Virus record (IMG/VR): IMGVR_UViG_2850796239_000012 | From: a virus | Lineage: Duplodnaviria; Heunggongvirae; Uroviricota; Caudoviricetes | Length of the DNA stretch: 51,993 bases | Reading direction: 5' to 3' (one strand) | Shown here: in pieces, positions 22,087 through 40,150 of the stretch | Layout of the letters: every line of letters begins with the position of its first letter | Position numbering within the stretch: position 1 is the first letter of the stretch | The notes under the pieces: generated by a model | Databases searched by the model: none | Told to the model about the DNA's origin: nothing | The model's input: the letters and a program-made list of their open reading frames with translations, nothing else | Made by a program: the position numbers and the translations under genes

Positions 22087-22192
22087 AGCTTAATCTCCGA
22101 AAAAGATGACTGGTGCTTCCACCAGCGATTTAGGCTGTGTCCCTTAATCATCTGAGCTATAGTAACTGTCTGTTTACACAACATATTGAACT

Positions 22193-22642
22193 ATGGCTCG
22201 CTACGACCTTCCCGATGAGGCATGGACCATCATCAAGCCCCTGTTACCTCCTGAACCCGCCACACCACGGGCCGGACGCCCATGGGCTGAGCACCGTAAA
22301 ATCATCAATGGCATGTTCTGGGTGTTATGTTCCGGTGCACCATGGCGCGATTTACCCGAACGATATGGGGCATGGAAAACTGTTTATAACCGCTTTAACC
22401 GATGGTCAAAGTCAGGCGTGATTAATATTATTTTCAACAGGTTGCTTTCGCTACTTGATGCAAACGGCTTTATTGACTGGTCTGCCACCGCGCTGGATGG
22501 CAGTAATATCCGGGCGCTGAAATGTGCCGTCGGTGCTCAAAAAAACATCCCGATATCGACGGAGATAATGGGCTGGGTCGCTCTCGCGGCGGTTTTGGCA
22601 CCAAAATCCATCTGGCAACAGACGGAAGTGGCCTCCCGTTAA
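22193..22642 (+). CDS. IS5-family transposase OrfA
   Basis: 149 aa. Confidence 0.8.
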   Translation: MARYDLPDEAWTIIKPLLPPEPATPRAGRPWAEHRKIINGMFWVLCSGAPWRDLPERYGAWKTVYNRFNRWSKSGVINIIFNRLLSLLDANGFIDWSATALDGSNIRALKCAVGAQKNIPISTEIMGWVALAAVLAPKSIWQQTEVASR

Positions 22643-23037
22643 ATATCGTGCTAAGCCCCGGACAAGCTCATGAAAGCCAGTTCGCGCAACGACTTCTGGA
22701 CGGGATTGGCGTTCAGCGTCAGAACGGCAGCATGAAACGCCGTGGACATGCGGTACTGGCTGATAAAGCGTATTCAGGGCGCGCATTGCGCAACGAGCTG
22801 AAAAATAACGGTATAAAGGCAGTAATCCCCCGAAAGTCAAATGAGAAAATGGCATCGGATGGACGTGCACAGCTTGATCGTGATGCGTACCGCAATCGTA
22901 ATGTCGTTGAACGGTGCTTTGGGCGGCTGAAAGAATATCGCCGCATCGCCACGCGTTACGACAAAACGGCGAGAAATTACCTGGCGATGGTGAAACTGGG
23001 CTGCATCCGACTCTTTTATCAACGCTTACGTAATTAA
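22522..23037 (+). CDS. IS5-family transposase OrfB
   Basis: 171 aa; -1 frame relative to orfA; A AAA AAC at ~22539-22545. Confidence 0.75.
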   Translation: MCRRCSKKHPDIDGDNGLGRSRGGFGTKIHLATDGSGLPLNIVLSPGQAHESQFAQRLLDGIGVQRQNGSMKRRGHAVLADKAYSGRALRNELKNNGIKAVIPRKSNEKMASDGRAQLDRDAYRNRNVVERCFGRLKEYRRIATRYDKTARNYLAMVKLGCIRLFYQRLRN

Positions 23038-23616
23038 GGGACACAGCCTAATACCGTACTCGCGCACAACCTTCCGGCGCAGACGCACCGTCATATCGTA
23101 GCGGCGGACCCATTGCTGATTAATAAGTTCAGGGAAGGGAGTCAGACCTGTGTAATCGCCAAGAGACAGCCCCAGCGCATTCAGTGCTGCATTGTTCTGC
23201 GGCACAGATATACCGTCACGAAACCGGGACGCATACACCATCCCCGCCGGACCATAAAACGAAGCCATACACTCAATCGTTTCATGCCGCCAGAGCTGAG
23301 AGCCATCATCGGTCTGTCTGGTGAATGCCGGACTGTCATCACCTGACCATCCGATAACCCCAAACGCACACCAGCTCGTTTCAGCCGGTAGCAGTGGCGG
23401 CTGCTCTTTCTGCCAGCGCGGACGAACCATCCCGGCAGACAGACCGGAAACGTTACGCATCCACTGGCTTAACAGCCTGTCGAGCGCTTCGTCATAATCC
23501 GGATCGCCACTGGTTGGTATCAGCCATCCGCGCTCTGTGCTGGTGTTATTGCTCAACCGGAATTCCCCCATCAAACGGCAGCAACTCACAATGCGCCTGA
23601 ACGAATCCGGCACCAT
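23026..23616 (-). CDS. Phage head-tail joining/neck protein, C-terminus replaced by IS-derived codons
   Basis: 196-aa ORF whose last ~7 codons and stop lie inside the IS; without the IS the frame would continue …KSLVEAPVIFFGD* to a stop 3 nt before the sheath start. Confidence 0.5.
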   Translation of the reverse strand: MVPDSFRRIVSCCRLMGEFRLSNNTSTERGWLIPTSGDPDYDEALDRLLSQWMRNVSGLSAGMVRPRWQKEQPPLLPAETSWCAFGVIGWSGDDSPAFTRQTDDGSQLWRHETIECMASFYGPAGMVYASRFRDGISVPQNNAALNALGLSLGDYTGLTPFPELINQQWVRRYDMTVRLRRKVVREYGIRLCPLIT

Positions 23617-34667: not shown

Positions 34668-34742
<75 letters not shown>

Positions 34743-34745
34743 ATA

Positions 34746-34821
<76 letters not shown>

Positions 34822-34823
34822 GC

Positions 34824-34900
34824 TGGCCCACCACCGAGGACTCGAACCTCGCACCGTCAACTTAGAAGGTTGATGCTCTATCCGGATGAGCTAGTGGTGG
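34824..34900 (-). tRNA. tRNA-Arg (anticodon UCU)
   Basis: Acceptor stem CCACCAC/GTGGTGG (unusual C1-G72), anticodon stem TCAAC/GTTGA with loop CUUCUAA, T-arm CGAGGTTCGAGTCCTCG, CCA encoded. Confidence 0.7.
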
Positions 34901-34901
34901 T

Positions 34902-34978
34902 TGGTGGCCCTTGCTGGACTTGAACCAGCGACCTGGCGATTATGAGTCGCTCGCTCTGACCAACTGAGCTAAAGGGCC
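34902..34978 (-). tRNA. tRNA with CAU anticodon, body resembling minor tRNA-Ile (ileX/ileZ type)
   Basis: GGCCCTT acceptor stem, anticodon loop CUCAUAA, T-arm GCTGGTTCAAGTCCAGC, CCA encoded; Ile(LAU) versus Met cannot be settled from sequence alone. Confidence 0.7.
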
Positions 34979-35722: not shown

Positions 35723-36009
35723 AAATATCCCTCCTTTCTCCAGATTTCTTGTGTGCGAAAAACACCTTCTGCATGCATCAGGCGTAATTCTTCTTTGGTG
35801 TAATCGCTGGTTTTTACCCGCCCGTCGATTAAATCGTGGCACGAGCTACAGGCAATCGCTGCCTGCATATCGTGTGGCTTTATCGCTGTTCCGCACGTTC
35901 CCGCCAGTCGGTAATGCGCCAGCACAGACGTTTCCGGATCGTGATTGCAGTAGCCAGGAATTCTGACGGTGCACATCTGCCCCCGCGCCGCTTTAAGTAA
36001 ATCCACCAT
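35719..36009 (-). CDS. YbcO-like Cys-rich protein (DUF1364, putative nuclease)
   Basis: 96 aa with …RIPGYCNHDPETSVLAHYRL…CGTAIKP…ACSSCHD… resembling E. coli DLP12 YbcO as recalled; nin-region position. Confidence 0.65.
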   Translation of the reverse strand: MVDLLKAARGQMCTVRIPGYCNHDPETSVLAHYRLAGTCGTAIKPHDMQAAIACSSCHDLIDGRVKTSDYTKEELRLMHAEGVFRTQEIWRKEGYL

Positions 36010-36489
36010 TACGCAAACTCCAGCAGCTGCGCGGCCACATTTTCGACTTGTTCCGGAGAGGAAAATTTACGGAACAGAATCCAGTTCCACAGCACATTCA
36101 GTACAGATTTATAAACCTGCTGAAACTCGGTTTCGTCCATATTCGCAAACGCGATAGATTTCGCCCGACACCCACGGCTACCGTCCGGATAAAAATGCTC
36201 GGTGTAAAATCCGGCCTGAATGGCTACCCACTCGCGGAAAGCCTCAAACGACTTTAGCAATGCCGTATCACGGGTTCTGCGTGTCGCAACTGTATTCAGA
36301 TATTGCTCTGCGGCTTCGCTCAGAGCTGGCGTATGTTCCCGGCCTACTGATTCACACAGGTAATCAACGAAACCGGACACCAGTTTTCGTTCGCGAGGCG
36401 TGATCGCCCCACCGACCGGAGTCCAGTAATCGAAACCCAGTTGCAGGAGTTTGAAAAAACGCTTGTGGAATGCGTAGTTGGATTTGCCC

Positions 36490-37395
36490 CTATATTTCCA
36501 GACATCTGTTATCACTTAACCCATTACAAGCCCGCTGCCGCAGATATTCCCGTGGCGAGCGATAACCCAGCGCACTATGCGGATGCCATTCGTTATAATG
36601 CTCGAACGCCTCTGCAAGGTTCTTTGCTGCCGTTAACCCGTCTGGTTTGGGCATGATACTGATGTAGTCACGCTTTATCGTTTTCACGAAGCTCTCTGCT
36701 ATTCCGTTACTCTCCGGACTCCGCACCGCCGTGTTCTTCGGTTCAAGTCCCAACATCCGGGCGAACTGGCGTGTTTCATTAGCCCGGTAGCATGAACCAT
36801 TATCCGTCAGCCACTCCACTGGAGACGACGGAAGATCGTTGCCGAAGCGGCGTTCCACCGCTCCCAGCATGACGTCCTGTACTGTTTCACTGTTGAAGCC
36901 GCCGGTAGTCACCGCCCAGTGCAGTGCCTCACGATCACAGCAGTCCAGCGCGAACGTGACACGCAGTCTCTCTCCGTTATCACAGCAGAACTCGAACCCG
37001 TCAGAGCACCATCGCTGATTGCTTTCTTTCACGGCCACTCTGCCTGTATGTGCCCGTTTCGATGGCGGTACAGCAGGTTTTCGCTCAAGCAACAGCGCAT
37101 TCTGGCGCATGATCCGGTAAACACGTTTGGCATTGATCGCAGGCATACCATCAAGTTCTGCCTGTCTGCGAAGCAGCGCCCATACCCGACGATAACCATA
37201 CGTGGGCAGCTCTCCGATAACATGGTGTATACGGAGAAGCACATCCGTATCATCAGTGTGACGACTGCGGCGGCCATCCATCCAGTCATCGGTTCGTCTG
37301 AGAATGACGTGCAACTGCGCACGCGACACCCGGAGACAACGGCTGACTAAGCTTACTCCCCATCCCCGGGCAATAAGGGCGCGTGCGCTATCCAC
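36490..37395 (-). CDS. insD: IS2 OrfB (InsD transposase catalytic part)
   Basis: 301-aa DDE-type ORF overlapping orfA, typical IS3-family arrangement. Confidence 0.85.
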
Positions 37396-37718
37396 TTTTT
37401 TGCCCGTCCATATTCAACGGCTTCTTTGAGGAGTTCATTTTCCATCGTTTTCTTGCCGAGCAGGCGCTGGAGTTCTTTAATCTGCTTCATGGCGGCAGCA
37501 AGTTCAGAGGCAGGAACAACCTGTTCTCCGGCGGCCACAGCAGTAAGACTTCCTTCCTGGTATTGCTTACGCCAGAGAAATAACTGGCTGGCTGCTACAC
37601 CATGTTGCCGGGCAACGAGGGAGACCGTCATCCCCGGTTCAAAGCTCTGCTGAACAATTGCGATCTTTTCCTGTGTGGTACGCCGTCTGCGTTTCTCCGG
37701 CCCTAAGACATCAATCAT
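37353..37718 (-). CDS. insC: IS2 OrfA (InsC)
   Basis: 121 aa from [26 protein letters not shown]… (internal Met of the listed ORF). Confidence 0.85.
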
Positions 37719-37982
37719 CTGTACTCCAATGACTAGTCTAAAAACTAGTATTAAGACTATCACTTATTTAAGTGATACTGGTTGTCTGGAGATTCAGGGG
37801 GCCAGTCTAGTAGTTACGCACACGCTTAAAGTCTGCGTGTATCCACTCACCTATTTTGATTTGATGCAGAAAATCGCAACTCTCCGGCGTCGCCGGGAGA
37901 AGTAATCCGGAAGAGGTTTGTTTGACCAGTTGTATATGTGCCATCGGCTTTCTCCGGTGGCACGGTGTTACACAGCAGGAGT

Positions 37983-38519: not shown

Positions 38520-38675
38520 TTACTTCCTGGATTCGTAGTCTACGAAGACAGCGACCTCCGTCTGGCCGGTTCGGATTCGTACCTCACAGAGGTCTTTCCT
38601 CGTTACCAGTGCCGTCACTATGACGGTTAAACAGATGACGATCAGGGCGATTAACATCGCCTTTTGCTGCTTCAT
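38520..38675 (-). CDS. hok: Hok/Gef-family type I toxin (HokD/RelF-like)
   Basis: 51 aa MKQQKAMLIALIVICLTVIVTALVTRKDLCEVRIRTGQTEVAVF…, very close to recalled HokD/Gef; an in-frame upstream extension (to 38732) is mok-like. Confidence 0.85.
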   Translation of the reverse strand: MKQQKAMLIALIVICLTVIVTALVTRKDLCEVRIRTGQTEVAVFVDYESRK

Positions 38676-38902
38676 AGCCTGCTTCTCCTTGCCTTTCGGC
38701 ATGTAAGAGGCTAACCTACATGTGCAAAGCATGAAATTGGCCTCAGATTAATGTTAAGCGTCTTGCCGGACGCGTAATGTTAACTGGGGCTTTTCTCTAT
38801 CTGCCTTTTGGTGTTCATGCCTGAAGCAGATAGCCTCAAGCACCCGCAGTCATTCTACTTACCTCGCCAATATGAAATCAATCAGAAAGGTGCCCCATAA
38901 AA

Positions 38903-39589
38903 TCACTCCTTCTCTTCTTTACCGTAGTGGAGTTGACCAATTTTGATAAGAGGGCGTCCCTGAGATTTGCGGTGTAGATTGGTATCGCGCAGAGAATACA
39001 CACAGCCACAATATTCCTGCTGATAGAATTTTTCGCGCTTGCTGATTTCAATCATACGGGACGAGCCGCCCTGCTTGCGCCAGTTATAATCCCAGTACAC
39101 CATGCCCGGATAATGCGCGACGGCTCGCCGCCCACAGTCGTTAACCTGCTGCATATTTTTCCAGCGTGAAATGCCCAGTGAACTGCTGATCACACTGAAA
39201 CCATTTTCAGCGGCGTACAGCGCTGTCCGCTCAAAACGCATGTCAAAACACATGGTGCAACGGATCCCTCGTTCGGGCTCCCATTCCATTCCTTTGGCTC
39301 GTTCAAACCAGTTGTCTGTGTCGTAATCAGCATCAATAAACGGCACGCCGTGTTGTTCAGCAAAGCGAATATTCTCATCCTTACGAATTAAATACTCTTT
39401 CTGAGGATGAATGTTCGGGTTGTAGAAAAAGATGGTGTAGTCGATTCCCGAAGCCTGAAGCGCCTCCATCACCTCACCGGAACATGGAGCACAGCAAGAG
39501 TGCAGTAGTAGTTTGTTTGCCCCGTTTGGGAGCTCCAATTTGGGCCGTTTGAAATCAGCAACTGTCATAAATATGTTTATTGGGGTCAT
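38903..39589 (-). CDS. QueH-like (DUF208) Cys-rich protein, putative epoxyqueuosine reductase homologue
   Basis: 228 aa with …[11 protein letters not shown]… and …CTMCF… / …CGC… cysteine motifs characteristic of DUF208/QueH as recalled. Confidence 0.55.
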
Positions 39590-39736
39590 AAAAATATCAA
39601 AGAGTGTAGCATTAGAACGGGGCTATCGGAAACAGATGTGTGACTGCTCCCCGCCCTTTCGGGCGGTCTCCTGATGATTTGAGGGTGCAGAAATCCCTCC
39701 GGTTAAGGATTAAATTTTTAACAGTGCTAAATTTAA

Positions 39737-40150
39737 TTATTCAGTTCTGGATTTTGTCGCCCTGCGTATCCGCGCTTTCGCGTTACGCTCAATCTGTATC
39801 AGCTTTTCTATATTTCTCCGCCTTTCCTGTTCCTCCTGGCGCAATAGCCTTACATCATCTGCCAGTCTGGTTTCTCTTTTTGCCACAGAGAGCATCCAGT
39901 CAAACGGCTCCACAACCGCACCGCAGATTTTACAGCGGACCTGACGCTCTTTTTCGTCAACCCGTACAGAGGCGTGATGGCAATATGGTCTTTCCGATGG
40001 CTCATAAAGAAAATTAACCTGATTACGAGGGTCATCCTCTTTTATCGGAAATAAAACGATATTGCTTAACTCATCTTCTGGTTTTATTTCCATGCTCCTC
40101 TCCTTTGATGCGAATGCCAGCGGTAATTGAAGCCTGATAGCTAATTTCAT
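39737..40150 (-). CDS. Hypothetical protein with C-x(17)-CxxC zinc-ribbon-like motif
   Basis: 137-aa ORF (true start may be the internal MEIKPEDE… Met) in the replication/nin region. Confidence 0.35.
   Translation of the reverse strand: MKLAIRLQLPLAFASKERSMEIKPEDELSNIVLFPIKEDDPRNQVNFLYEPSERPYCHHASVRVDEKERQVRCKICGAVVEPFDWMLSVAKRETRLADDVRLLRQEEQERRRNIEKLIQIERNAKARIRRATKSRTE

Follow-up and report, generated by a model that had tools for sequence, protein, structure and literature searches.

The window analysed here is a 51,993-nucleotide stretch of viral DNA (Caudoviricetes; IMG/VR record IMGVR_UViG_2850796239_000012) that is collinear, at >99% identity, with a prophage found in E. coli FDAARGOS_944. 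This prophage has inserted next to ybhA and carries an ipaH gene at its other end, and the window differs from it by four insertions only, all of which are IS elements. On the minus strand, a cro-like gene is followed in order by ydaT, an O-like gene, ydaV (DnaC/IstB-like), a DUF977 gene, a gene for a hypothetical protein of 137 amino acids, a gene of the queH family, and hok/sok. Beyond hok/sok lie a gene for a 95-amino-acid hypothetical protein, a DUF1367 gene with an IS3-family insertion, DUF1364 and DUF1133 genes, four tRNA genes, and genes for lysis and morphogenesis. By this gene order, in which ydaT, the O-like gene, ydaV and the DUF977 gene precede queH, the gene occupies the replication-to-nin region of a lambdoid (Rac-like) prophage, where a sequence-only reading of the same DNA had already placed it. 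The coordinates of all features are given in Table 1.

Several neighbouring elements can be recognised. Directly 3' of queH is a complete hok/sok type I toxin-antitoxin locus (38520-38845, minus strand), which is a linked neighbour of queH and not part of the enzyme. A promoter-like site on the hok/mok strand may be the hok/mok promoter. The hypothetical 137-amino-acid protein encoded upstream of queH has two CxxC pairs and a weak, sub-threshold match to a zinc ribbon. Between its gene and queH is a GC-rich hairpin (CCGCCC-GAAA-GGGCGG) without a T-run.

The IS3-family element is IS2-like, with HTH_Tnp_1 and rve frames. It is inserted in the DUF1367 gene, whose remaining frame matches only profile positions 38-198 of 198, whereas the corresponding gene of the FDAARGOS_944 prophage is intact. 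The other three insertions include one IS66-family element with three reading frames, and two copies of a ~0.9-kb IS with a DDE_Tnp_1 transposase, which lie in opposite orientations inside morphogenesis genes. The prophage is probably defective. Just beyond its tail-fibre end, a frame encodes a product with the NEL (novel E3 ligase) domain known from type III effectors of the IpaH type. Combined with the IS load, this frame is indicative of a host that is Shigella or Shigella-like. The four tRNAs have the anticodons CAU, UCU (Arg), UGU (Thr) and UCC (Gly), where the CAU tRNA is assigned to Met by ARAGORN and to Ile by RefSeq. None of the four is a queuosine substrate.

Table 1. Features of the queH region and of the surrounding prophage, in window coordinates
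Feature	Position	Strand	Evidence or remark
queH, longest reading frame (from Met1)	38903..39589	-	ORF list of the window
queH CDS from its probable start, Met8	38903..39568	-	ORF; Pfam PF02677; Thermotoga 7lc5; homologue N-termini; RefSeq
HSCCAPC motif, His30 to Cys36	39482..39502	-	read from the translation; 32-sequence alignment
ATG codon of Met41	39467..39469	-	
CTMC motif (Cys111, Cys114), with invariant Arg110 before it	39248..39259	-	32-sequence alignment
CGC motif (Cys194, Gly195, Cys196), near the C-terminus of the domain	39002..39010	-	32-sequence alignment
Leader, ~70 nt, that travels with queH	39569..39639	-	homology edge at 39639
GC-rich hairpin between the 137-aa gene and queH	39650..39668		
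Gene for the 137-aa hypothetical protein	39737..40150	-	
Promoter-like site	38881..38852	-	
sok antitoxin RNA region of hok/sok	38670..38845	-	Rfam RF01794, 117 bits, E 2.2e-27
hok/mok toxin frame, immediately downstream of queH	38520..38732	-	Pfam HOK_GEF, E 9.8e-23; hokD in near-identical RefSeq prophage
IS3-family element	36479..37810		
Remaining DUF1367 frame	36009..36515		
tRNA cluster	34668..34978	-	
Further insertion relative to the FDAARGOS_944 prophage	22132..23049		
Further insertion relative to the FDAARGOS_944 prophage	14321..15236		
Further insertion relative to the FDAARGOS_944 prophage	4915..7671		
NEL-domain frame	3808..4674	+	

The ORF that contains queH begins with ATG and encodes 228 amino acids. 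Its ends and length agree with the sequence-only reading, which left the strand unstated. However, this is the longest possible reading frame, and the likely CDS is shorter. In an alignment, the N-termini of 29 close homologues begin at or near Met8 of the product, and a near-identical gene in RefSeq (WP_012421537.1) is called from Met8 with a length of 221 amino acids. Because the homologue N-termini and the RefSeq call agree, we rejected Met1 as the start in favour of Met8 (position 39568), which gives a predicted protein of 221 amino acids. There is no clear Shine-Dalgarno sequence before either of these two methionines.

A third candidate start, Met41, is implied by PHROG 3217 and by older gene calls. 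We rejected it, since it removes the invariant Cys32 and Cys33 as well as Cys36. A Shine-Dalgarno-like sequence, GGTGAGGTG, is located just 5' of the Met41 ATG, and probably misled gene callers. The PHROGs profile phrog_3217, which is labelled 'unknown function', begins at Met41 and lacks the CCAPC cysteines. An older call, 'putative prophage protein' in CAKLQH020000001.1, also begins well inside a queH homologue, near the position of Met41. The queH ORF itself is not a chance reading frame, as is evident from its Pfam score, from the intact state of 79 of 80 copies fetched from IMG/VR, and from dN/dS ratios of 0.02-0.05, all of which are described below.

Amino acids 27-201 of the product match positions 1-174 of the 175 positions in Pfam profile PF02677 (QueH, formerly DUF208). 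The score of 220.6 bits (E 1.9e-65) compares with a curated cut-off of 23.5, and this full-length match bears out the QueH/DUF208 identity that had been proposed from the sequence. By sequence, the protein matches no solved structures other than those of Thermotoga maritima QueH, among which 7lc5 gives an E-value of 5e-22 over 175 residues. A search of the NCBIfam profiles with the protein gave no match, and the RefSeq name 'epoxyqueuosine reductase QueH' presumably derives from another evidence source.

Residue conservation was assessed in an alignment of 32 sequences, consisting of the prophage protein, Thermotoga QueH, and a diverse set of 30 full-length representatives that an exhaustive HMMER search had returned. 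At all columns with 90% conservation or more, the prophage protein has the conserved residue. Six of its cysteines (Cys32, 33, 111, 114, 194 and 196) are invariant in all 32 sequences, and the position of a seventh, Cys36, is Cys in 31, the exception being Asp13 of the Thermotoga enzyme. Thus, the HSCCAPC motif noticed in the original reading is present, and all conserved cysteine ligands are found on alignment with diverse homologues and with the Thermotoga protein. Cys32, 33 and 36 align with Thermotoga Cys9, Cys10 and Asp13; Cys111 and Cys114 with Cys87 and Cys90; and Cys194, Gly195 and Cys196 with Cys169, Gly170 and Cys171, with the residues of the latter two groups conserved in 32 of 32 sequences. 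Other family-invariant residues are also present, namely Asn57, Asn59, Glu65, Arg69, Glu106, Arg110, Lys144, Gln191, Gly195 and Ser199. Among the QueH entries in the PDB are C9S and D13N mutants, altered at the positions of Cys32 and Cys36. The conserved cysteine set, with its CC..C/D, C..C and CGC motifs, presumably holds a [4Fe-4S] cluster and an extra iron.

An AlphaFold model of the prophage protein, built on 30 sequences, has a mean pLDDT of 74.6 and a pTM of 0.76. Its top five matches in the PDB are the five Thermotoga QueH entries (target-normalised TM 0.80-0.83, rmsd 2.7-4.1 Å, E down to 1e-11), which clearly outrank other adenine-nucleotide-hydrolase-like folds. Next come TtuA, LarE and argininosuccinate synthetase, with E-values of 3e-5 or worse, six orders of magnitude behind QueH. 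By all family tests run, on the sequence and on this predicted fold, the protein classifies as a clear member of the QueH/DUF208 family.

Signals that might control queH separately from its neighbours were sought around the gene. Upstream of queH, the coding strand shows no consensus sigma-70 promoter; we also found no intrinsic terminator for the gene, and no Rfam element or riboswitch (preQ1 or cobalamin) in the upstream region. queH is co-oriented with the early-right operon, and expression after induction is the default expectation. In 61 of 80 IMG/VR loci, homology to the window begins abruptly at 39639, ~70 nucleotides upstream of Met8, and the same edge is seen in L002, L011 and L013. 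The hairpin described above is just outside this boundary. The gene for the 137-amino-acid protein is present in only ~14 of the 80 loci, but hok/sok follows queH in ~65 of them, and queH with an identical upstream junction is kept in prophages whose neighbouring genes differ. Given the sharp edge, the seldom-kept upstream gene and the usually kept hok/sok, queH and its short leader behave as a cassette that is in most cases linked to hok/sok and has been reshuffled between lambdoid backgrounds. With regard to the features expected of a moron, a self-contained cassette for lysogenic conversion, a promoter and terminator belonging to the gene were not detected, yet its upstream boundary at 39639 is sharp and conserved, and its prophage backgrounds are varied.

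A megablast search found queH in 995 of 5426 complete E. coli genomes (18%), nearly always in a single copy, and 985 of the copies cover at least 80% of the gene. All E. coli records listed carry the RefSeq annotation 'epoxyqueuosine reductase QueH'. The gene is also present in at least 188 IMG/VR contigs. Given these numbers and the RefSeq name, the sequence-only reading overstated the case when it called a prophage copy unexpected. The same reading held that enterobacterial hosts normally use QueG for this step. For E. coli this is correct, since queG is present in all 5426 complete genomes, but it does not extend to the order as a whole, where many Enterobacterales have a chromosomal queH. 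Because queG is universal in E. coli, queH is always a second epoxyqueuosine reductase gene in this species.

In all contexts inspected in E. coli, Shigella and E. albertii, queH resides in one lambdoid slot, after the replication genes and the DUF977 gene. The same slot after DUF977 is used in an ST131 strain, an O157:H7 strain, a bird isolate and FDAARGOS_944. What lies downstream varies, and can be hokD, a cytosine methylase with an NgoMIV-type endonuclease, or other genes. Among isolated and sequenced phages (INPHARED), Escherichia phage HannyBb is the only real phage with queH, where the gene is annotated as hypothetical. The other INPHARED matches are mostly short, unannotated contigs of faecal origin, and the matches labelled as Staphylococcus or Listeria 'phage' are unannotated records, one of which is 282 kb in length. 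We also rejected 'Acinetobacter phage MD-2021a' (CAKLQH020000001.1, 328 kb) as a phage, because it is a bacterial chromosome fragment with soxR, tadA, cynX and transporter genes. This record was misfiled as a phage, and the surroundings of its queH homologue (78% identical) are not those of a phage.

The prophage alleles are under strong purifying selection. When the allele of the window was compared with four other prophage alleles by the Nei-Gojobori method, dN/dS was 0.02-0.05 at dS values of 0.16 to 0.38. All seven cysteines are present in the 79 intact IMG/VR copies.

Outside of Escherichia and Shigella, the closest proteins are 79-92% identical to prophage QueH. They are found in Enterobacter, Scandinavium, Kluyvera, Serratia, Kosakonia, Erwinia, Pantoea and Pectobacterium, with further relatives in Rahnella, Proteus, Providencia, Photorhabdus and a few other Proteobacteria. 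Among 80 species-representative queH loci, only those of E. albertii and S. flexneri have lambdoid neighbour genes, and 78 do not. Chromosomal copies with inspected contexts, whose proteins are 84-92% identical to prophage QueH, lie between a purL-like gene and a sensor kinase gene in an Erwinia-like genome, beside a tmcA-like gene in Providencia, in an ordinary chromosomal context in Photorhabdus, among metabolic genes in Scandinavium, and among metabolic genes next to a small tyrosine recombinase in Enterobacter hormaechei. As the nearest non-prophage relatives are ordinary chromosomal queH genes, the prophage probably acquired its gene from the chromosome of a different Enterobacterales bacterium. 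At the DNA level, the Erwinia-like, Providencia and Photorhabdus genes are ~76% identical to the prophage gene, and therefore none of these three is the immediate donor; Enterobacter, Scandinavium and Kluyvera were compared as protein only. In E. hormaechei B56, queH (positions 4181-4885 of locus L099; 92% identical) is immediately 3' of a gene for a 234-amino-acid tyrosine recombinase of the Phage_integrase family. This pair could be a tiny integrative island and represent a mobilisation step.

We consider it quite likely that the gene encodes a working, cobalamin-independent QueH that is carried as prophage cargo and provides the host's tRNAs with a second, B12-independent route from epoxyqueuosine (oQ) to queuosine (Q). 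As an iron-sulfur and cobalamin-independent enzyme, it would convert oQ to Q at position 34 of tRNA-Asp, -Asn, -His and -Tyr. In E. coli, tgt and queA are core genes that make oQ-tRNA, and the species has no de novo synthesis of B12. An E. coli or Shigella host of this lambdoid (Rac-like) prophage would therefore already make oQ-tRNA and already have QueG, which requires B12. When B12 is lacking, its tRNA would stay at oQ, and a queH gene in the early-right region of the prophage could supply a B12-independent finish to Q. Action of the enzyme would be expected during transcription of the early operon, and also in the lysogen should the gene be constitutively expressed to any degree. The beneficiary could be the host, or the phage itself during lytic growth.

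Published observations bear on two steps of this proposal. In bacteria grown without B12, oQ34 persists (PMC6850298, citing Frey 1988). In Shewanella, phage infection raises Q via queG expression (bioRxiv 10.64898/2026.03.05.709803), so the step from oQ to Q can be limiting during infection. We found no paper that describes an assay of this particular protein. To our knowledge, E. coli queG mutants, which keep oQ, have no strong phenotype, and any fitness benefit of queH may thus be small. A more ambitious reading is that prophage queH is a genuine viral auxiliary tRNA-modification gene, and the first virus-encoded enzyme of the Q-specific branch, whose B12-independent Q shifts NAU/NAC decoding in lysogens or lytic growth in B12-poor niches and measurably affects phage yield or host fitness. 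We regard this extension as possible but somewhat doubtful.

The QueH fold might instead be put to a non-routine use, either in changing anticodon modification so as to alter sensitivity to anticodon nucleases or other tRNA-targeting defences or toxins, or on some other epoxide or deazapurine substrate. The Shewanella result ties Q levels to phage infection in one system at least, and queH usually adjoins hok/sok in a region where exclusion and defence cargo is plentiful. However, the protein's 84-92% identity to chromosomal QueH encoded in housekeeping contexts includes invariant positions without prophage-specific changes, and its basic C-terminal tail is common to the chromosomal orthologues. 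A specialised use of this kind thus has no specific support, and we think that it is unlikely.

The gene could also be a functionless passenger, gained by illegitimate recombination and hitch-hiking with a successful prophage. This idea would fit with its redundancy with the universal host queG, with the lack of a detected promoter of its own, and with its location in a slot of variable cargo, which in other prophages holds a restriction-modification system or different genes. Yet a passenger would not be expected to show the low dN/dS (0.02-0.05) seen across alleles with dS up to 0.38, nor the retention of every ligand cysteine in 79 of 80 copies, nor a cassette and upstream junction kept amid different neighbouring genes, and we consider it very unlikely.

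The sequence-only reading had also raised the possibility of a phage 7-deazaguanine pathway, in which QueH would serve Dpd-like modification of phage DNA against restriction and not tRNA. We know of no oQ or Q base in DNA. Phages do divert the preQ0 pathway to modify their own DNA (PMC6884629), and QueH belongs to the same broad pathway, but this role is unsupported and in our estimation extremely improbable: no DpdA/TGT-like transglycosylase is named among the 62 features (58 protein-coding, 4 tRNA) of the FDAARGOS_944 prophage, no FolE, QueD, QueE or QueC is annotated in that >99% identical and collinear element, the four IS elements are the only DNA specific to the window, and none of QueA, QueG and QueH was found in the deazaguanine-modifying viruses analysed by Hutinet 2019 (PMC6884629).

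The role that we favour, a B12-independent completion of Q in host tRNA, would involve an enzyme family, a chemistry and a protein name that are already in databases. The gene is an accessory gene and not a new system, and is best described as an uncharacterised QueH member in an unremarked vehicle. Our literature search found no paper on phage-, prophage- or virus-borne QueH, and a frequently cited survey (PMC6884629) did not find QueA, QueG or QueH among the viruses that it analysed. The vehicle appears to be under-appreciated, in that lambdoid prophages bring queH, which is under strong purifying selection, to about one in five complete E. coli genomes. If active, prophage QueH would uncouple the completion of queuosine from B12 supply in E. 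coli and Shigella. It would then offer a simple, testable example of a temperate phage that tunes host tRNA modification and bypasses a vitamin requirement.

Among characterised proteins, Thermotoga maritima QueH (7LC5, 7LC7, 9DEU) is ~31% identical to the prophage protein over the whole domain. The two have in common the full-length profile match, the fold (predicted for the prophage protein), and all invariant cysteines and polar residues. They differ in that the prophage protein has Cys36, the usual family residue, in place of Asp13 in Thermotoga, and in that it carries ~19 extra N-terminal residues and a basic C-terminal tail of ~25 residues, both of which are absent from the Thermotoga enzyme. 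The N-terminal extension and the tail are common to gammaproteobacterial orthologues and prophage QueH. Because chromosomal orthologues have them too, these extensions are, as judged from sequence comparison, features of the clade and not phage inventions. The chromosomal queH genes of other Enterobacterales encode proteins with 79-92% amino acid identity to prophage QueH over the whole length, terminal extensions included, but adjoin housekeeping or metabolic genes, whereas the prophage gene is prophage cargo.

QueG (YjeS) of E. coli catalyses the reaction of QueH on the same tRNAs, as known from the literature, but its fold is unrelated, and it is cobalamin- and [4Fe-4S]-dependent and so needs B12. 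Published work describes QueG as cobalamin-dependent and QueH as cobalamin-independent (PMC11906303; PMC13443448), and QueH also as iron-dependent. In E. coli, queG is a core gene (5426 of 5426 complete genomes), whereas queH is accessory (18%). Phage DpdA clusters, with FolE, QueD, QueE and QueC, likewise are borne by phages and drawn from the queuosine/archaeosine pathway. However, these clusters act on DNA via the DpdA transglycosylase and stop at preQ0-type bases, unlike the QueH step, which comes two steps after insertion of the base into tRNA.
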